10,826 nucleotides of DNA from Nitrososphaerota archaeon (GCA_005877205.1 VBPL01000016.1:31643-42468); one strand, 5' to 3'. Counted from the stretch's first letter, positions 2 to 8,146 are shown. Notes: generated by a model from the letters alone, not told the origin. Translations and numbers: made by a program.

Positions 2-181
2 GAAAAGCCTGTTAGAATAATCGTGGATGGTGAGGAAGATCTCCTCGTAATTCCAACAGCTTTGCTTGCGCCGGAGGATTCTGTTATTTTATACGGCCAG
101 CCTAACGAGGGTATAGTTATTGTTAAAGTAAATCAGGAGATAAGAAATAAGGCCAAGTTGATTATGAATTCTATGAGTTAA
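2..181 (+). CDS. C-terminal fragment (59 aa) of an archaeal DUF359/UPF0218-family protein, the family of GTP-dependent dephospho-CoA kinase. The 5' end lies outside the window.
   Basis: Absent from the ORF track because no start codon lies in the window. Frame 2 is open from base 2 to TAA 179-181. It reads EKPVRIIVDGEEDLLVIPTALLAPEDSVILYGQPNEGIVIVKVNQEIRNKAKLIMNSMS. The DGEEDL..P..LLAP...V.YGQP..G block matches my recollection of the DUF359 signature. Confidence 0.55.
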   Translation, partial: EKPVRIIVDGEEDLLVIPTALLAPEDSVILYGQPNEGIVIVKVNQEIRNKAKLIMNSMS

Positions 182-262: not shown

Positions 263-628
263 ATGAAAATACTTGTGGTTGACGACAACAGTAGTATAAC
301 TGAACTACTCGCAATGTATTTCAAAAAGAAAGGCCATGATTGTATAACCACGAACGACGGGAAAGAGGGATTGTCACTATGTATGAATAATAAGTTTGAT
401 GCCATCATATTAGATTTGGCTATGCCAGAGTTCACGGGAAAGGATTTTCTTGATTCACTCATTCAAGAGGGAAAAATCGAACAGCAAAAAATAATCGTGT
501 TGACTGCAATGCCACTTGGCAATGTTAAGATCGAGGATCATCGTCACGGAATTTGTGAGGTGTTGCCTAAACCTTGCAAACTAGATGTTCTTATGAAAAC
601 TCTAGAATCATTAACTGTAGCTGCGTAG
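263..628 (+). CDS. Stand-alone receiver (CheY-like) response regulator, 121 aa, no output domain (RR1)
   Basis: Acidic pair D7-D8. Phosphoacceptor Asp in ILDLAMPEFTG (D51, codon 413-415). T81 in IVLTA. K103-P104 in LPKP. The length allows only a REC domain. Confidence 0.9.
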   Translation: MKILVVDDNSSITELLAMYFKKKGHDCITTNDGKEGLSLCMNNKFDAIILDLAMPEFTGKDFLDSLIQEGKIEQQKIIVLTAMPLGNVKIEDHRHGICEVLPKPCKLDVLMKTLESLTVAA

Positions 629-846
629 ATGCTGTTTATCTCTCTCAAAAGTAACCCTTCCTGTTCTAATTCTCTAAATTTGAAATCATAATTGCAAGAT
701 ATTAGAGCGTGGTCTTCTCGTGAATTAGAGGCAAGTCTGTCTTAAGAAATACATACCAGCTCTATTTAGGCGAAAAACGCTCATTCGTACGTGGACACAG
801 TGGTACATAGATTACATCATCAACCAGCTAATCGAATAGTTATTTT

Positions 847-852
847 GGTGAG
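847..852 (+). promoter_or_regulatory. Shine-Dalgarno-like GGTGAG upstream of the kinase start
   Basis: GGTGA is complementary to the UCACC of the conserved 16S 3' tail. It lies 5 nt before ATG 858. Confidence 0.35.
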
Positions 853-857
853 ATGAA

Positions 858-2366
858 ATGAGACTAGGTCTACAAATTGCCATTATAGTATCCCTGTTTG
901 CTTGCGTTATGACAGTTATCGGATATGTTTTATTGGTTCAATGGAATAAACCGGCGACATCCACGACCGAAACAGCTGAGTTGATAAGGACTAGCACACC
1001 AATAATATTATTTGGCATTTTCATTTTTATAGTCATGGCAGGGACTATGACCTTTTTAATCCGTTCTGTTACAAATCCAGTAAAAAAACTGCGAGATGCT
1101 GCAGATAAAATCACAAGAGGGAATTTGGATGTTCAACCCAACATCAAAGGGACTACTGAAGTTCGTGACCTCGTCATTTCCTTTAACACTATGGTAAATA
1201 CACTTAAGAAAGCTAAAGAACTTCAATCTGCCGCTGTAGCAAAATACAAAAACCTCTATGAAAACGCGCCAGGTCTATATCGTACAGTTAGCGTGGATGG
1301 AATTATAGCAGACTGTAACAAGTCGTTTGCAGAACATCTGGGATACACGGTGGAGGAAGTTATCGGGACGCATTATAACAAGTACACTGACCCCAAGGAT
1401 GTGGAGGCCATGACGCATTCATTTGAAACTTGGAAGTTGACCGGAGTTGTTAAAAATATTGAAATTTGGCTCAAGACCAAAGGCGGAACCACTTTTCCAA
1501 CACTAATTAGTGTAAGCAATCTTTATGATGAAAAAGGCAACTTGATTGGATGTAACAACGTTATCAGAGACATTTCAGAAATTCACGAAGCAAGAAAAAA
1601 ACGAGAAAAAGATGCAATAATGGATTTACAACTTGCTGAGGTTAAAAAGATGGAAAAACTAAAGGATGAATTTGCCTCTATGATGACGCATGAATTGAAG
1701 ACCCCGCTCACTCCGATAATGGGTCACTGTGAAATGTTAAAAGAGCCTGGTCTACTTGGTGATCTTAATCAAATTCAGTTAGATTCAATTAATAAAATTT
1801 CTGAAAATGCTCTTAGATTGCAGCGACTAATTGGTGATGTAATGCTAGCCCAGAGATTAGAAATTGGTCAAATGAACTTTGATAAGCAGAAATTTGAGGT
1901 GACGAAATTGATGAGTGAGATACATAACGACTATTCCAAAATTATGAACGAAAAACAGATCGAGTTTGTAAATTCAACACAAGAAAACTTAAGTCTATGG
2001 AGTGATAAGAATAGAGTTAGAGAAGTAATCGATAATCTAATTCAGAACGCGGTAGACTTTACGCCCAAAAATAATGGAAGGATCGAGATTGGTGCAAGGA
2101 GTGAAGATAGCAAGGTTGTCTTCTACGTACAGGATAATGGTATCGGCATTCCAAAGGCCGTGCAACCAACTATGTTTAAAAAATTCTATCAGGTTGATGC
2201 GTCACACAGGAGAAAGCACACGGGGACAGGTCTTGGACTGGTGATCTGTAAAGGAATAGTAGAAGGTTTAGGGGGTGGAATATGGTTTGAAAGTGAACCT
2301 GGGAAAAGTACGAGCTTTTATTTTAGCATTCCAGATGAAGTATATTGGAAGAATCGATTGACTTAA
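858..2366 (+). CDS. Membrane-anchored sensor histidine kinase with TM-TM-HAMP-PAS-HisKA-HATPase_c architecture, 502 aa
   Basis: Two hydrophobic helices (about aa 3-27 and 48-68) are separated by a loop of only about 20 residues. A HAMP-like linker follows. The PAS-like region runs YENAPGLYRTVSVDG...NNVIRDISE. H-box MTHELKTPL (His codon 1689-1691). N-box DNLIQNAVDFT, G1 DNGIGI, G2 GTGLGL. Confidence 0.92.
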   Translation: MRLGLQIAIIVSLFACVMTVIGYVLLVQWNKPATSTTETAELIRTSTPIILFGIFIFIVMAGTMTFLIRSVTNPVKKLRDAADKITRGNLDVQPNIKGTTEVRDLVISFNTMVNTLKKAKELQSAAVAKYKNLYENAPGLYRTVSVDGIIADCNKSFAEHLGYTVEEVIGTHYNKYTDPKDVEAMTHSFETWKLTGVVKNIEIWLKTKGGTTFPTLISVSNLYDEKGNLIGCNNVIRDISEIHEARKKREKDAIMDLQLAEVKKMEKLKDEFASMMTHELKTPLTPIMGHCEMLKEPGLLGDLNQIQLDSINKISENALRLQRLIGDVMLAQRLEIGQMNFDKQKFEVTKLMSEIHNDYSKIMNEKQIEFVNSTQENLSLWSDKNRVREVIDNLIQNAVDFTPKNNGRIEIGARSEDSKVVFYVQDNGIGIPKAVQPTMFKKFYQVDASHRRKHTGTGLGLVICKGIVEGLGGGIWFESEPGKSTSFYFSIPDEVYWKNRLT

Positions 2367-2423
2367 GAAATTGGTTTTACATCGGTAGAATCTTCGCCAA
2401 TGATGGCGAAAGCGGTGGGATAA

Positions 2424-2451
2424 CTATTAGTATCATCCTTCCTACTAATAG
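2424..2451. promoter_or_regulatory. Perfect 9-bp inverted repeat CTATTAGTA-N10-TACTAATAG overlapping the presumed promoter of the second response regulator
   Basis: The arms at 2424-2432 and 2443-2451 are exact reverse complements. The right arm ends 17 nt before ATG 2469 and contains a TATA-like TACTAATA. Confidence 0.4.
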
Positions 2452-2468
2452 GATAGTGAGTTAGTTAC

Positions 2469-2834
2469 ATGAAGCTCTTGCTGATCGAAGACAATGACAA
2501 TATATCAGGTATGATTGCACAGTACCTAAGGTTAAAGGGATACGATTGTATGGTTACGAATAATGGAAAGGACGGACTGAACCAAATTTTAGCTGAGAAC
2601 TATGATGTCGCATTATTGGATTTAGCGATGCCCGAATTTAGTGGATATGACGTTATAGAATCTCTTGAAGTAACGGGAAAGTTAAAAGAGCAGAAATTAA
2701 TTGTATTGACTGCATCCTCTATTACTGAAGGTAAGATGAAAGAATTGGAAAAAAGAGGTGTGTATACGTGCATAAAAAAACCGGTTCAGCTAAACGAGCT
2801 TGTCAAAGTTATTCAATCCTGTGTTGAATCTTGA
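2469..2834 (+). CDS. Stand-alone receiver (CheY-like) response regulator, 121 aa, paralog of RR1 (RR2)
   Basis: E7-D8. Phosphoacceptor Asp in LLDLAMPEFSG (D51, codon 2619-2621). T81 in IVLTA. K104-P105 in KKP. It has the same length as RR1 and shares the LDLAMPEF(T/S)G and QK(I/L)IVLTA blocks. Confidence 0.9.
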   Translation: MKLLLIEDNDNISGMIAQYLRLKGYDCMVTNNGKDGLNQILAENYDVALLDLAMPEFSGYDVIESLEVTGKLKEQKLIVLTASSITEGKMKELEKRGVYTCIKKPVQLNELVKVIQSCVES

Positions 2835-2890
2835 TCTGACACCAACCTAAAGTGAACATATCCATTGAATTGGCACAGAATAGTAGTAAA

Positions 2891-2948
2891 GGGGAATGAT
2901 GACACGGTGGCTGTATGATTTGTGATTAAGCTACACAAGTTCTGACCC
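2891..2948 (+). ncRNA. Candidate archaeal box C/D sRNA (2'-O-methylation guide), about 58 nt
   Basis: C box AUGAUGA at 2896-2902. 12-nt spacer CACGGUGGCUGU at 2903-2914. D' AUGA at 2915-2918. UUU loop. C' GUGAUUA at 2922-2928. 13-nt spacer AGCUACACAAGUU at 2929-2941. D box CUGA at 2942-2945. A 5' GGGG (2891-2894) and 3' CCC (2946-2948) could form a terminal stem. It sits in an intergenic spacer and is followed by a T7 run. Confidence 0.6.
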
Positions 2949-2958
2949 TGAATAACCA

Positions 2959-2965
2959 TTTTTTT
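2959..2965 (+). terminator. Oligo-T (T7) archaeal termination signal
   Basis: TTTTTTT lies 11 nt after the proposed sRNA 3' end and 125 nt after the RR2 stop. Archaeal RNA polymerase terminates at oligo-T tracts. Confidence 0.5.
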
Positions 2966-3045
2966 GGTTGAGATGAAAAAGTATACAACTTCAGATATGA
3001 TGATTGACAATCTAAATTAAACCAGGATTTTAAAATTTTGAATTT

Positions 3046-3408
3046 GTGAAGCTTGATTTCAGTCTTCGTTTAAGAATATTGGAAAAAGTTGGGATTTACT
3101 CAAACAGGTTCGGAATTCAAGAGCCAAAGGTGTTGCTGACGACCAGAGAGGTTCTTGATATGCCAAGAGAGGTTACGCAAGGGAGAAGAACTTCAGCCTA
3201 CAAATACTTGGGTGTCTCCTATCTTCAGCATTGCCTCGTCTTTATAAACATCAAAAAGATCCAAGATGAAAAAATGCTTGAAAATACTGTAGTTCATGAA
3301 TTAATTCATATGCGGTTTCCCTATCTGAGTCATGGAAAAAGATTCAACAAACTCGTAAGACGAAGTCTTGCAGGCAAAACTTTTGCACCATACAAGAAAA
3401 GAAAATAG
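3046..3408 (+). CDS. Small HExxH zinc-metallopeptidase-like protein (SprT / DUF45-YgjP-like minimal domain), 120 aa from GTG; start uncertain
   Basis: VVHELIHMRFPYLSHGKRFNKLV fits the HExxH-x(n)-HG..F pattern of SprT/DUF45-type domains. It is preceded by an R.TS..YLG...I.IN-like block. The ORF opens with GTG. The first in-frame ATG is at 3157 (M38). A TTTTAAAATTTT element lies at 3028-3039. Confidence 0.5.
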   Translation: MKLDFSLRLRILEKVGIYSNRFGIQEPKVLLTTREVLDMPREVTQGRRTSAYKYLGVSYLQHCLVFINIKKIQDEKMLENTVVHELIHMRFPYLSHGKRFNKLVRRSLAGKTFAPYKKRK

Positions 3409-3463: not shown

Positions 3464-5512
3464 ATGACGCCTCAAGAAATAATTCCTGTTGGTGCGTCAA
3501 TTGTTGCTTTCATTATTGCTGTAGTCCTTGCGGCGTGGGTATCTAAACAAAAACCTGGAACACAACAGATGCTAGATATTTCAAACGCAGTGGGGGTGGG
3601 TGCAATGGCATTTTTGAGAAGAGAGTTTAAAATTGTTATTCCTATAGCTGTAGGTCTTGCAGTCTTGATTGGCATATTATTACGATCTCCCGATGGATTG
3701 CCAACTAATGGTATTGCTTTTGCAGTTGGCGCTGGACTTTCTGCCGTTGCAGGATTGATCTCACTTAAAATTACGGTAAAGGCCGCAGTTCGAGCTGCAA
3801 ACGCGTCAGGAAAAGGGCTTGGACATACATTTGCCCTTGCATTTAGAGGCGGAGCTACAGTAGGACTTGCTGTACCTGCTATGGCTCTTTTGGGCATGAG
3901 CTTACTTTATTTTGCATTTCCAAGTCCTATCACAATTGCAGGAGTTGGTATAGGTGCTAGTTTGATTGCCTTGTTTATCAGAGTAGGTGGTGGAATTTTC
4001 ACAAAGGCTGCAGACATGGGTGCAGACCTAGTAGGGAAAGTAGAGGCAAATATCCCAGAAGATGACCCACGAAACCCTGCTACAATCGCTGATAACGTAG
4101 GAGACAATGTAGGAGATGCAGCTGGAATGGGCTCAGATATTTATGAATCATATATTGTAACCATGCTTGCATCATTGCTGATTGCTGGACTGATTGAAAC
4201 TCCTCAGAACTTGTTTTATCCAATGTTGGTTGGCGCTTCAGGACTATTTGCATCTATTATTGGTGTTGCAACAATAGGACCAAGAAAGATGACTGATGTC
4301 AACAAACCTCTTGCCCGTGCATTTTATGTTTCTGCTGCAATAGCAATCGCACTTAATTTTGTTTTTACATACATATTCCTTGGTCATACTCAGATTGCAT
4401 ACGCTCTTTTTGGTAGTACGGTGATTGGGGTTATTCTAGTACCAGTCATACAGAGGATTACAGACTATTTTACAAGCTACAGATTCAAACCTGTCCAAGA
4501 AATTGCCGAATCTGCAAGATGGGGATATGCTTCACTTACACTAATGGGAATAATACAGGGAATGCGTTCAACAGGCCCTTTCATGATTGCCATTACTATT
4601 GCTCTAGCTACATCATATGTTTTGGCATCATCTGCAGCTCCTGATCCTTCTCAGACTACACTTTATGGAGTCTTTGGCACTTCACTTACCGCAATGGCAA
4701 TGCTAAGTCTTGCAGGGATTGTTTTGAGTATAGATGCATTTGGTCCTATCAGTGACAATGCTGGTGGAATTGTAGAAATGATAGGTATGGGAGAAGAGAA
4801 TCGTAAAGTTACAGATGAAATTGATGCAGTAGGAAATACTACAAAGGCAGTGACCAAGGGTTTTGCCATCGCAAGTGCCGGTCTAGCTGCGTTAGCTATG
4901 ATTCAAGCATTTCAGTATGAAGCGGGAAAAATATTTCATCACACTTTCGATTATAGTCTCTCAAATCCAGCAATAGTTATTGGATTACTTGTAGGAGGTC
5001 TGCTGCCATTCTTTATTACCAGCCAGCTTATATCTGCGGTCGCAAGGGCAGCTTCTAAGATGGTAGAAGAAGTAAGGCGACAATTCAAAGAGACTCCAGA
5101 AATTCTAACAGGTAAAGCAAAACCTGACTATGCAAAATGTGTTGATGTTGCAACCGTAGCTTCATTACGTGAGCTTTGGAAATCCGCAACCATAACGATT
5201 GCAGCCCCAATAGTACTTGGTGTAGTTTTGGGTCCATCTGCTGTAGTTGGACTTTTGATGGGGGCCGTAATAACAGGAATTTTCCTGGCTTTCCATCTGG
5301 CAAATACTGGTGGTGCGTGGGACAATGCCAAAAAGTACATGGAAATTAAAAAACAAAAAGGAACTGAAGAACACAAGATAGCAATTGTTGGCGATATAAT
5401 AGGAGATCCTTACAAGGACACTGCTGGACCAGCACTTAATACAGTCATAAAATTACTCAATACCGTAGCGATTGTCTTTGTTTCTGCCTTTGTTGCACTG
5501 GTAGTTCTATGA
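3464..5512 (+). CDS. hppA: Membrane-integral H+-translocating inorganic pyrophosphatase, K+-independent subtype signature, 682 aa
   Basis: Hallmark block GGGIFTKAADMGADLVGKVEANIPEDDPRNPATIADNVGDNVGDAAGMGSDIYESY. It is a polytopic hydrophobic protein. GNTTKAVTKG at 4832-4861 carries Lys and Thr at the two positions that distinguish K+-independent from K+-dependent enzymes. Confidence 0.95.
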   Translation: MTPQEIIPVGASIVAFIIAVVLAAWVSKQKPGTQQMLDISNAVGVGAMAFLRREFKIVIPIAVGLAVLIGILLRSPDGLPTNGIAFAVGAGLSAVAGLISLKITVKAAVRAANASGKGLGHTFALAFRGGATVGLAVPAMALLGMSLLYFAFPSPITIAGVGIGASLIALFIRVGGGIFTKAADMGADLVGKVEANIPEDDPRNPATIADNVGDNVGDAAGMGSDIYESYIVTMLASLLIAGLIETPQNLFYPMLVGASGLFASIIGVATIGPRKMTDVNKPLARAFYVSAAIAIALNFVFTYIFLGHTQIAYALFGSTVIGVILVPVIQRITDYFTSYRFKPVQEIAESARWGYASLTLMGIIQGMRSTGPFMIAITIALATSYVLASSAAPDPSQTTLYGVFGTSLTAMAMLSLAGIVLSIDAFGPISDNAGGIVEMIGMGEENRKVTDEIDAVGNTTKAVTKGFAIASAGLAALAMIQAFQYEAGKIFHHTFDYSLSNPAIVIGLLVGGLLPFFITSQLISAVARAASKMVEEVRRQFKETPEILTGKAKPDYAKCVDVATVASLRELWKSATITIAAPIVLGVVLGPSAVVGLLMGAVITGIFLAFHLANTGGAWDNAKKYMEIKKQKGTEEHKIAIVGDIIGDPYKDTAGPALNTVIKLLNTVAIVFVSAFVALVVL

Positions 5513-7028: not shown

Positions 7029-8146
7029 CCTACTGTTACTTTTCCAGTCATCCACGGATGAACCTGACAGTAATAATCAAATGAACCTGCAGAATCAAAT
7101 CTGTGCTCAAAGGTCTTACTCGACTTTATCATACCACTATCAAAAATTGTCCCAGTTTGGTTGTCTGTAGATTTTCCACTTGTAACTGTGTGAGAAGCGC
7201 TGTCATCATTTGTCCAAACTACCGTTGTGCCAATCTTAACATCTATTTCTTGTGAGTCGAAATATTTCTGTCCCTCTTTTTGGGTTGATGCGCCACTCGG
7301 AATTGTAACATTTGCAATTACTGGTTTTGTTGCTTCCGTTATCACTATTTTACCCGTCATAAAAGGATGAACAGTACAGAGATAGTCATATTCCTTAGCA
7401 TCAAGTTTTGATGTATCTAGTCTGTAGCTCTTACCTGCTGAAATGATATTTGAATCAAAGATAGAGCCATCAGGTGCACTTGTTACTGTATGGGGCACTT
7501 TATCGTTGTTAGTCCATTCTATTATGTCCCCTTTTGGAACAGAAACAGTTGCTGGATTGAAGCTGGGGTTACCTTGAACTGACGCATTAAGGGGAATCTC
7601 AACTGGGATTATAGGTGCGGTAGGAATCGGTAGAGCTACAGGTTTTGCAGTAGTTACATTTTGAGGATGTAAAGAGAACTCAGCTCCTGGTCCGATAAAA
7701 CCTAATGCCGTGTAAGAACCAATGCCTACGGCCATGGCTGCTAAGAATATTATTGTAATAGGCTTGAAGTAATGTGGCATCTTCATAGAAGCAAATGCGA
7801 TCACAATAGAGGGTACAAGTATGACAAGCAAAGCTCCAACAAATCGTGGTAATGATGTTACGACAGAATTGAGACTTAATGCATATGCTCCAACCGAGCC
7901 CGCAATTCCAAAAATAACAAGAGTTGTAGCTTTTGCTCTTCCACTTGTAGAAACTCCACCGTTTAGGATGCCAGCTGCCAAAAATACCAGTCCTACAAAC
8001 ATAGTCAAACCAGAAAGTGCTTGCATGCCTGTCAGGAATGTGTTTGCAATGCCCATGTAAGATAAAATCACGCCTGCAAGACCGATAGCCGTAAGGCCCA
8101 TTCCTGGCATCATAAGGTCCCAGTCACTCATTTGTGGTAGTTCCAT
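7025..8146 (-). CDS. Membrane-anchored tandem blue-copper protein: about 5 TM helices, a Pro-rich linker and two cupredoxin (plastocyanin/amicyanin-like) domains, 373 aa
   Basis: There are five hydrophobic segments in aa 13-150 and a linker KPVALPIPTAPIIPVEIP. The type-1 Cu ligand sets are PHTVTS...YLCTVHPFM (7358-7378) and SHTVTS...YYCQVHPWM (7049-7069). The start could alternatively be M6 (ATG 8129-8131). Confidence 0.85.
   Translation of the reverse strand: MELPQMSDWDLMMPGMGLTAIGLAGVILSYMGIANTFLTGMQALSGLTMFVGLVFLAAGILNGGVSTSGRAKATTLVIFGIAGSVGAYALSLNSVVTSLPRFVGALLVILVPSIVIAFASMKMPHYFKPITIIFLAAMAVGIGSYTALGFIGPGAEFSLHPQNVTTAKPVALPIPTAPIIPVEIPLNASVQGNPSFNPATVSVPKGDIIEWTNNDKVPHTVTSAPDGSIFDSNIISAGKSYRLDTSKLDAKEYDYLCTVHPFMTGKIVITEATKPVIANVTIPSGASTQKEGQKYFDSQEIDVKIGTTVVWTNDDSASHTVTSGKSTDNQTGTIFDSGMIKSSKTFEHRFDSAGSFDYYCQVHPWMTGKVTVG

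Follow-up and report, generated by a model that had tools for sequence, protein, structure and literature searches.

What is encoded in the short spacer at positions 2891-2948 (plus strand) of a 10,826-nucleotide (nt) stretch of DNA from a Nitrososphaerota archaeon (GCA_005877205.1, VBPL01000016.1:31643-42468; the whole stretch is called the window here), and, if it is a guide RNA, to what does it guide? An earlier reading of this DNA, made without database searches (the sequence-only reading), had seen there an unannotated box C/D small RNA (sRNA) candidate, with the 530 loop of 16S ribosomal RNA (rRNA) as a possible target that it did not assert. Our comparative analysis suggests, with a probability of roughly 0.8, that the segment encodes a canonical archaeal box C/D sRNA of about 58 nt whose D' guide directs 2'-O-methylation of 16S C522. 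Judged by comparison among relatives, the element is a real, undescribed family of a known kind, and the mechanism that it would use is not new.

Read directly, the 58 nt of 2891-2948(+) run GGGGA-AUGAUGA-12 nt-AUGA-UUU-GUGAUUA-13 nt-CUGA-CCC (Table 1), and re-reading found the four boxes, their order, coordinates and spacings, the flanking GGGG and CCC, and the T7 run beginning 11 nt past position 2948 to be exactly as first described. A relaxed regular expression ([AG]TGATGA, 10-14 nt, NTGA, 2-8 nt, NTGATNA, 10-14 nt, CTGA) matched a single time over the two strands of the window, and none of 2000 shuffles that kept the dinucleotide composition gave a match. Fold prediction gives a weak structure (z = -1.4), as is normal for RNAs of the C/D class.

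A genome scan with an alignment of the SprT-like protein encoded downstream yielded 80 species-level Nitrosopumilaceae loci (Nitrosotalea, Nitrosarchaeum, Nitrosopumilus, CSP1-1 and metagenome-assembled genomes), and the same element was present in 73 of them, mostly about 100-150 nt upstream of SprT. From 64 distinct variants of the element we built an alignment and a covariance model, R1. Invariant in this alignment are the GGG and the CCC of the stem (the latter within CTGACCC), the core of each of the four boxes, and a 14-mer, CGGTGGCTGTATGA, which comprises D' guide positions 10-1 and box D'. The core of the D' guide (CGGUGGCUGU / CGGTGGCTGT) is thereby fixed in 64 of 64 variants; guide positions 11-12, the D'-C' loop (3-5 nt) and the flanks vary. 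Mean pairwise identity in the two main clades is 0.93-0.99 for the D' guide and 0.80-0.90 for the D guide, against 0.67-0.71 for the loop and 0.64-0.78 for the flanks. The D' spacer of relatives is 12 nt long and the D spacer 11-14 nt, with insertions or deletions of 1-2 nt among variants in both the D guide and the loop. Conservation of boxes, stem and guide core, combined with freedom in the loop, the flanks and positions 11-12, is the pattern predicted for a C/D guide RNA.

The alignment also bears on how the boxes fit together. Boxes D' and C' had each been scored with one mismatch, as if defective. A canonical kink-turn contains a pair between G6 of box C and C1 of box D; here U6 of C' and A1 of D' can form a U-A pair, which is kept in 63 of the 64 variants with the GA dinucleotides intact. 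GUGAUUA and AUGA thus compensate each other, with U-A in place of the usual G-C, and the scoring as defects has to be corrected. The proposal that GGGG and CCC close a terminal stem is borne out: the GGG/CCC pairs are kept in all 64 variants, and an outer, fourth pair is possible in 60 (G.U in 54, G-C in 3, A-U in 2 and U-A in 1). All other structural pairs are free of variation and hence give no covariation signal for or against the structure. D' and D are each preceded directly by a U in every variant; this U can pair with A7 of C' or C, which would explain why guide position 1 is invariant even if it does not pair with a target. In the assembled particle, the GGG/CCC terminal stem would close a kink-turn, C' and D' would form an internal kink-loop (K-loop), and the RNA would be bound by L7Ae, Nop5 and fibrillarin. 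An intramolecular helix between the two guides (GUGG with CUAC) was considered and rejected, as RNAalifold gave merely -3.9 kcal/mol and no covariation.

The target of the D' guide was sought in 120 thaumarchaeal rRNA loci retrieved by the 771F primer sequence, 29 near-complete operons of which were scanned. When the invariant 10-mer of the guide was slid along these operons, the sole recurrent match of at least 9/10 was (U/C)CAGCCGCCG, in the 530 loop; the guide scan found NCAGCCGCCG at the same 16S site in all 29 operons, and the pattern GUG(U/C)CAGCCGCCGCGGUAA occurs at the same offset in 26 of the 29. Guide positions 2-10 pair with 16S 519-527 over nine contiguous pairs, namely seven G-C, one U-A and one U.G (position 7), and the earlier count over the full 12 nt (9 Watson-Crick pairs, 1 G:U and 2 mismatches) is correct against the thaumarchaeal sequence GUGUCAGCCGCCGCGG. 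Guide G5 stands in Watson-Crick register opposite the C that follows CAG, the middle C of GUGUCAG-C-CGCCGCGG, which is C522 in Escherichia coli numbering when 515F is taken as G515. Dennis et al. (2015) use an archaeal consensus numbering in which this nucleotide is C499, G507 equals E. coli G530 and A512 equals A535 (PMC4644070). For one genome, CSP1-1, sRNA (L072) and rRNA operon (L213) lie on the same contig (LDXL01000006), and there the 530 loop forms the best D' duplex, at -17.5 kcal/mol against -13.2 kcal/mol for the runner-up, a result that by itself is suggestive, not decisive.

A nearly identical guide in another archaeon is predicted to address the same stretch of rRNA. Archaeal rRNA has a hotspot of methylation in helix 18 (Dennis et al. 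2015, PMC4644070), and sR152 of Ignicoccus hospitalis, detected by RNA-seq with a coverage of 2600, reads ...GAUGGGGA-CGCGGUGGCUGU-CUGA, with 16S C499 as the predicted target of its D guide (CGCGGTGGCTGT followed by CTGA; PMC4644070). Taken together, the 29 of 29 operons, the best duplex in CSP1-1 and the shared guide of sR152 turn the 530-loop lead into the best-supported target, and the D' guide most likely directs a methyl group to C522, in the decoding centre of 16S rRNA. Positions 2-10 would base-pair with CAGCCGCCG (519-527, 530 loop, helix 18), and fibrillarin would 2'-O-methylate the nucleotide opposite guide position 5 (the N+5 position), that is C522, or C499 in the consensus, during small-subunit assembly. 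Archaeal C/D ribonucleoproteins (RNPs) read no more than 10 nt of a guide, duplexes of 9-10 base pairs (bp) are modified efficiently in vitro, and longer guide duplexes inhibit modification at lower temperature (PMC7229835). The invariance of the guide up to position 10 and its freedom at positions 11-12 fit this 10-nt reading rule (PMC7229835), and having two pairs fewer than Ignicoccus would fit the temperature effect in a mesophile.

As to class, each sequence-level hallmark of an archaeal box C/D sRNA is seen in the element: C and D boxes at its ends, a D'/C' pair capable of forming a K-loop, spacers of about 12 nt, a terminal stem, complementarity of the D' guide to rRNA with a Watson-Crick pair at N+5, and conservation of boxes and guide. 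The only one lacking is membership of an existing Rfam family. Two spacers of about 12 nt and a total length of about 50-70 nt are the norm for archaeal C/D sRNAs (PMC7229835), and a survey of archaeal taxa reported fibrillarin in more than 90% of them (PMC8481954). The scan with C/D covariance models that the sequence-only reading had recommended was made with Rfam, in whose E-value mode seven families, all of them archaeal C/D families, aligned over the full length of the element at 2892-2948(+) below threshold: sR20 (the best, with 25.6 bits and E 0.0017, its gathering threshold being 44), snoPyro_CD, sR12, sR3, sR5, sR36 and sR2. Such sub-threshold alignments are expected, because the guides differ from those of every curated family, and scores below every gathering threshold therefore point to a new family rather than to a member of a curated one such as RF01140 (sR20) or RF00095 (snoPyro_CD). 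Together with the 73 of 80 species and the 2000 shuffles, these C/D-only alignments uphold the proposal of a box C/D sRNA. Our search of the literature on C/D sRNAs, small nucleolar RNA (snoRNA)-like RNAs, L7Ae and fibrillarin in Nitrosopumilus, Thaumarchaeota and ammonia oxidizers, made in an incomplete full-text library, found no such RNA described, and the searchable literature held no mapped rRNA ribose methylation for ammonia-oxidizing Thaumarchaeota.

Several observations weigh against a C/D sRNA directed at C522. The covariance model found no element in the SprT neighbourhood of the remaining 7 of the 80 species, and at gathering thresholds, where the recommended scan was negative, the element matched no Rfam family. 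In CSP1-1, about 5% of shuffled guides (5 of 100) equalled the 530-loop duplex, which makes 9 bp with one G.U only moderately unlikely by chance. The search for ACAGCCACCG, the perfect complement of the D' guide, covered about 1.3 Mb of loci and 27 transfer RNAs (tRNAs), a small share of the genomes. The D guide has no convincing target among the sampled rRNA operons and the 27 tRNAs, and in CSP1-1 its best duplex with the organism's own rRNA reaches -10.3 kcal/mol and involves the 5' end of the guide only. The guide search that had been suggested against rRNA and tRNA therefore succeeded for the D' guide (9 bp, 16S 519-527) and failed for the D guide, and the perfect targets that had been written down for the two guides are absent from the sampled rRNA.

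These points leave some room for a genuine C/D sRNA that does not methylate the 530 loop, a reading that we consider quite unlikely. Such an RNA could address another molecule carrying ACAGCCACCG, for instance a tRNA, 5S rRNA, ribonuclease P (RNase P) RNA or signal recognition particle (SRP) RNA, or it could act as a folding chaperone, holding G524-C526 off their pseudoknot partner 505-507 without methylating. Wobble U7 is invariant in the 64 variants although a C would pair perfectly, the duplex has just 9 bp and is equalled by 5 of 100 shuffled guides, the search reached only that small part of the genomes, and chaperone roles have been proposed for some C/D sRNAs by Dennis et al. (PMC4644070). 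However, the perfect complement occurred in the 1.3 Mb of related thaumarchaeal loci only as the antisense of the sRNA itself, and the 27 distinct tRNAs that ARAGORN found in the loci, an incomplete set, held no match to the perfect targets; reasoning from the sequence, a perfect target also misfits the canonical 2'-O-methylated (Nm) tRNA positions 32, 34 and 56. For Ignicoccus sR152, whose guide has the same wobble, 16S C499 is the assigned target; methylation in vitro is efficient with duplexes of 9-10 bp (PMC7229835); and the pair at N+5 is a Watson-Crick G-C.

It is very unlikely that the D' guide addresses, instead of or besides 16S, the conserved 23S sequence GCAGCYAUCC (helix 41-42, at about operon coordinate 2900). 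This sequence is present in all thaumarchaeal 23S rRNAs sampled and offers nine contiguous pairs to guide positions 1-9, with U7 opposite A, but in Nitrosopumilaceae the site reads GCAGCUAUCC, which leaves three G.U pairs and a duplex of -12.9 kcal/mol against -17.5 kcal/mol for 16S, and duplexes with three G.U pairs are likely to be inactive according to Dennis et al. (PMC4644070). That there is no RNA gene at all, the four boxes being a chance motif, a cis element that belongs to the gene upstream (3' untranslated region or terminator) or a piece of the minus-strand open reading frame (ORF) 2813-3010, is effectively refuted by the comparative data: the element does lie in a 3' intergenic spacer beside a T-run, a 65-codon ORF does overlap it and its fold energy is unremarkable, but the four-box pattern never arose in the shuffles, boxes and one guide are invariant over 73 species while the flanks diverge, the element persists whether DUF359, a response regulator, a gene on the opposite strand or nothing lies upstream, it has a promoter motif of its own in five lineages, and its 1-2-nt insertions and deletions in D guide and loop would shift any frame. 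The ORF itself, already taken to be spurious in the sequence-only reading, has no Pfam match, and its length is not conserved: in relatives, the minus-strand frame through the element stays free of stops over as few as 20 and as many as 181 codons.

The D guide behaves differently from the D' guide. It comes in several types, AGCUACACAAGUU in the window clade and Nitrosotalea, CACUACUAAAACU-like in Nitrosopumilus and CACUACAAAAUAUU in Nitrosarchaeum, to all of which CUAC alone is common. Its pairwise identity in the window-like clade is 0.90, against 0.64-0.72 for the flanks there, and this conservation above the neutral level within clades suggests that it may be functional; its length in the Nitrosopumilus type varies from 12 to 14 nt, which argues against a fixed N+5 register in those clades. 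The complement AACTTGTGTAGCT, searched with one mismatch allowed in the same 1.3 Mb, returned the antisense of the sRNA and one match with a single mismatch (L188), which lies outside the rRNA operon and was judged irrelevant. A variable 23S site, GAAA-NNN-YGUGUAG, located about 30-70 nt upstream of CGUACC..CCGACACAGGUG, resembles the complements of window-clade D guides and was compared in L087-L206, L210, L211, L213 and L219. The D guide of the window forms 11 bp with the 23S rRNA of L111 and L153, an L015-type guide forms 13 bp with that of L165, L210 and L211, and a U/C polymorphism is common to the guides and the site. As a D target the site is weakened by three facts: L111 and L153 belong to Nitrosopelagicus, another genus; the 23S rRNA of Nitrosotalea bavarica (L196) mismatches Nitrosotalea-type guides at positions 3-4; and in the one same-genome pair, CSP1-1, the D guide finds no partner in the rRNA. 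The site thus fails in the only taxonomically matched comparisons, and the D guide is either aimed at a variable or non-rRNA site or decayed. At window 2935-2943, where the D guide ends and box D begins, the sRNA also shares a 9-base identity, CAAGUUCUG, with 16S rRNA (e.g., in L153 and L193), located there in the 5' strand of helix 18, on the 5' side of the 530 loop and directly upstream of the D' target; it is of the same strand, not a complement, and probably due to chance.

How the RNA is transcribed can be approached through its neighbourhood, which suggests that the sRNA is a gene in its own right. It begins 0-20 nt past the stop codon of a DUF359 gene in 57 of 81 sources (the DUF359 gene of L001, at 7219-7713, ends ...NQEIRNKAKLIMNSMS with its stop), and the seven loci without the sRNA likewise lack DUF359 nearby; the ancestral arrangement would be an sRNA gene directly after the DUF359 gene. 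About 15 lineages have an insertion between the two. In the window, L009 and L011 it is a cassette of response regulator, histidine kinase and response regulator (263..2834, 2.7 kb) which is absent at this position in most relatives, and hence is a lineage-specific insertion that forms the context of the sRNA; at the cassette junctions, similarity to the DUF359 3' end or to the sRNA was too weak to mark a remnant of either. A mirror image of this insertion is seen in a Nitrosarchaeum-type group (L029, L040, L051, L053, L056, L058, L062, L067, L068 and L082), where about 1.5 kb is inserted between sRNA (at about 1320-1400) and SprT (at 3001) and the sRNA is still joined to DUF359.

In five lineages (L015, L034, L046, L061 and L074) the sRNA stands alone in an intergenic gap, and all five carry upstream of it a conserved motif resembling a promoter, AAAnACTCTTTTTATGAC, whose T-rich box occupies -31 to -25 relative to the stem's first G. 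This is the geometry of archaeal promoters with a B recognition element (BRE) and TATA box, and the motif would be the sRNA's own TATA-type promoter in these lineages. The window has no such motif upstream of the sRNA, which may be transcribed there by read-through from RR2 or may have a weak promoter of its own. Downstream, a T-rich AACCAnTTTTTTGGT-like motif recurs in the window-like clade, and oligo-T is read as a terminator in archaea; a scan for bacterial-type promoters and terminators, uninformative for archaea, found no terminator.

Table 1. Parts of the sRNA element, its neighbours, and gaps with a promoter-like motif (window positions unless a locus is named).
Feature	Coordinates	Strand	Remark
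DUF359 (PF04019) gene, 3' end	23..181	+	ancestral upstream neighbour of the sRNA
Response regulator	263-628	+	Pfam
PAS/HAMP histidine kinase	858-2366	+	Pfam
Response regulator RR2	2469-2834	+	Pfam
Terminal stem, 5' half, GGGG	2891..2894	+	pairs with CCCU at 2946-2949
Box C, AUGAUGA (DNA ATGATGA)	2896..2902	+	RUGAUGA in nearly all relatives
D' guide, CACGGUGGCUGU (DNA CACGGTGGCTGT, 12 nt)	2903..2914	+	positions 2-10 complementary to 16S 519-527
Box D', AUGA (DNA ATGA)	2915..2918	+	invariant; A1 pairs with U6 of box C'
D'-C' loop, UUU (DNA TTT), 3 nt	2919..2921	+	sequence varies among relatives
Box C', GUGAUUA (DNA GTGATTA)	2922..2928	+	RUGAUUA in 60/64 variants
D guide, AGCUACACAAGUU (DNA AGCTACACAAGTT, 13 nt)	2929..2941	+	clade-specific
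Box D, CUGA (DNA CTGA)	2942..2945	+	invariant
Terminal stem, 3' half, CCCU	2946..2949	+	pairing across variants
Inverted repeat AACCA-T7-GGTT, oligo-T at 2959-2965	2954..2969	+	probable transcription terminator of the sRNA
SprT-like/HExxH protein, 120 amino acids	3046..3408	+	synteny anchor; weak PF10263 match
H+-pyrophosphatase	3464-5512		Pfam
Gap with AAAnACTCTTTTTATGAC, locus L015	2734-2849		
Gap with AAAnACTCTTTTTATGAC, locus L034	2706-2849		
Gap with AAAnACTCTTTTTATGAC, locus L046	2681-2768		
Gap with AAAnACTCTTTTTATGAC, locus L061	2684-2847		
Gap with AAAnACTCTTTTTATGAC, locus L074	161-241		

Exact matches to proteins of the window lie on contigs from soil metagenomes. Of the SprT-like protein that served as anchor, 1249 homologues were found; those with a name belong to Nitrosopumilaceae, among them Nitrosarchaeum and "Thaumarchaeota", and the window is therefore from an ammonia-oxidizing archaeon of the Nitrosopumilaceae. 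Residues H84, E85, H88 and H96 of this protein are invariant, its start codon is GTG in the window and ATG in relatives, and different sources label it SprT, ImmA/M78 or M48. Beyond the H+-pyrophosphatase gene lie genes for plastocyanin-like, UbiA and AAA proteins. At 2961-3062, Rfam in E-value mode gave weak matches (E 1.7-8) to the plant and animal snoRNAs snoR41, snoR126 and SNORD20; these were judged to be chance, due to an ATGATGA at 2998-3004 in the SprT promoter or leader, where there is no four-box architecture. Upstream of the Nitrosopumilaceae 16S-23S operon (L087-L219), at a distance of about 200 nt, a HemL-like class III aminotransferase (432-460 amino acids) is encoded divergently. 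Look-ups of four such proteins, made to find further genomes with both sRNA and rRNA, led to assemblies outside the sRNA set, and CSP1-1 is the one pair obtained.

What would be gained is annotation and comparison rather than concept, the class of molecule and its mechanism being well known. In abundance, ammonia-oxidizing Thaumarchaeota rank with the foremost archaea on Earth, and the analysis makes a concrete prediction for the cultivable Nitrosopumilus and Nitrosotalea, namely a 2'-O-methylcytidine (Cm) at the equivalent of 16S C522 in the 530 loop; covariance model R1 can be used by genome annotators. The comparison also provides an evolutionary link, between the guide of a mesophile and the almost identical guide of the hyperthermophile Ignicoccus. 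A tentative and rather unlikely extension of our reading would make the RNA the thaumarchaeal descendant of an ancient helix-18 guide, common with sR152 to the whole group of Thaumarchaeota, Aigarchaeota, Crenarchaeota and Korarchaeota (TACK), in which a weakened duplex would be an adaptation to low temperature. The weakening would lie in the invariant G.U opposite G524 and in the unpaired positions 11-12, and the sRNP would have to release quickly the 3' strand of the 530-loop pseudoknot (524-526), a need that would give the RNA two roles of like weight, guiding methylation and acting as a timed chaperone of assembly; the D guide, which differs from clade to clade, would be a second module that evolves fast. 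If true, this would be a tractable case of guide-target stability tuned to temperature.

Among known systems, the element resembles the archaeal C/D sRNAs snoPyro_CD, sR20 and sR12 in its length of about 58 nt, the order C-D'-C'-D, spacers of about 12 nt, a short terminal stem and an N+5 guide to a conserved rRNA site. It differs from them in its C'/D' pair, GAUUA/AUGA rather than GAUGA/CUGA, in coming from a mesophilic thaumarchaeal lineage and in having no score at the Rfam gathering level. Eukaryotes also modify the 530 loop of 18S rRNA, by yeast snR77 (Um578) and human SNORD65 (Um627), with the same RNP chemistry in the same loop; these snoRNAs address different nucleotides, are much longer and work within the asymmetry of Nop56 and Nop58. 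The helix-18 guides sR5 of Thermoproteus tenax and sR6 of Pyrobaculum calidifontis are directed at the same 530-loop stretch, the former with a predicted site at C499 and the latter with one at C502. The T. tenax guide, ...GUGGCGGCUGG-CUGA (...GTGGCGGCTGG followed by CTGA), is directed at the same C499 as the D' guide here (PMC4644070), and the table entry sR5 is probably the sequence TtesR105. Unlike the element, T. tenax sR5 has C7, which gives a perfect G-C pair, and G1, and the boxes and the second guide differ from those of the element.

The closest match by guide is Ignicoccus sR152. Its guide, CGCGGUGGCUGU, and that of the element, CACGGUGGCUGU, are identical at 11 of 12 bases, have U1 and the wobble U7 in common, neither of which is forced by the target, and place the same predicted nucleotide in the same register. 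Compared with the guides to C499 in the supplement of Dennis et al. (PMC4644070), the element has the GG(U/C)GGCUG guide with C499 at N+5; the placement before box D and the pairing with a 16S G527 guide in one double-guide RNA are not found in it. The Ignicoccus guide stands before box D, whereas that of the element stands before box D'; the former also pairs at positions 11-12 (11 bp), which are unpaired and variable in the latter; and the partner guide of sR152 is directed at 16S G527 (consensus), unlike the D guide of the element, AGCUACACAAGUU, which is not complementary to the thaumarchaeal AGUGGUCAGGAUGA region. The likeness of the two guides would reflect either common descent or convergence on one target. 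On the evidence of its guide, sR152 appears to be the nearest relative of the element, in which, relative to sR152, the guide has been shifted from the D to the D' position.

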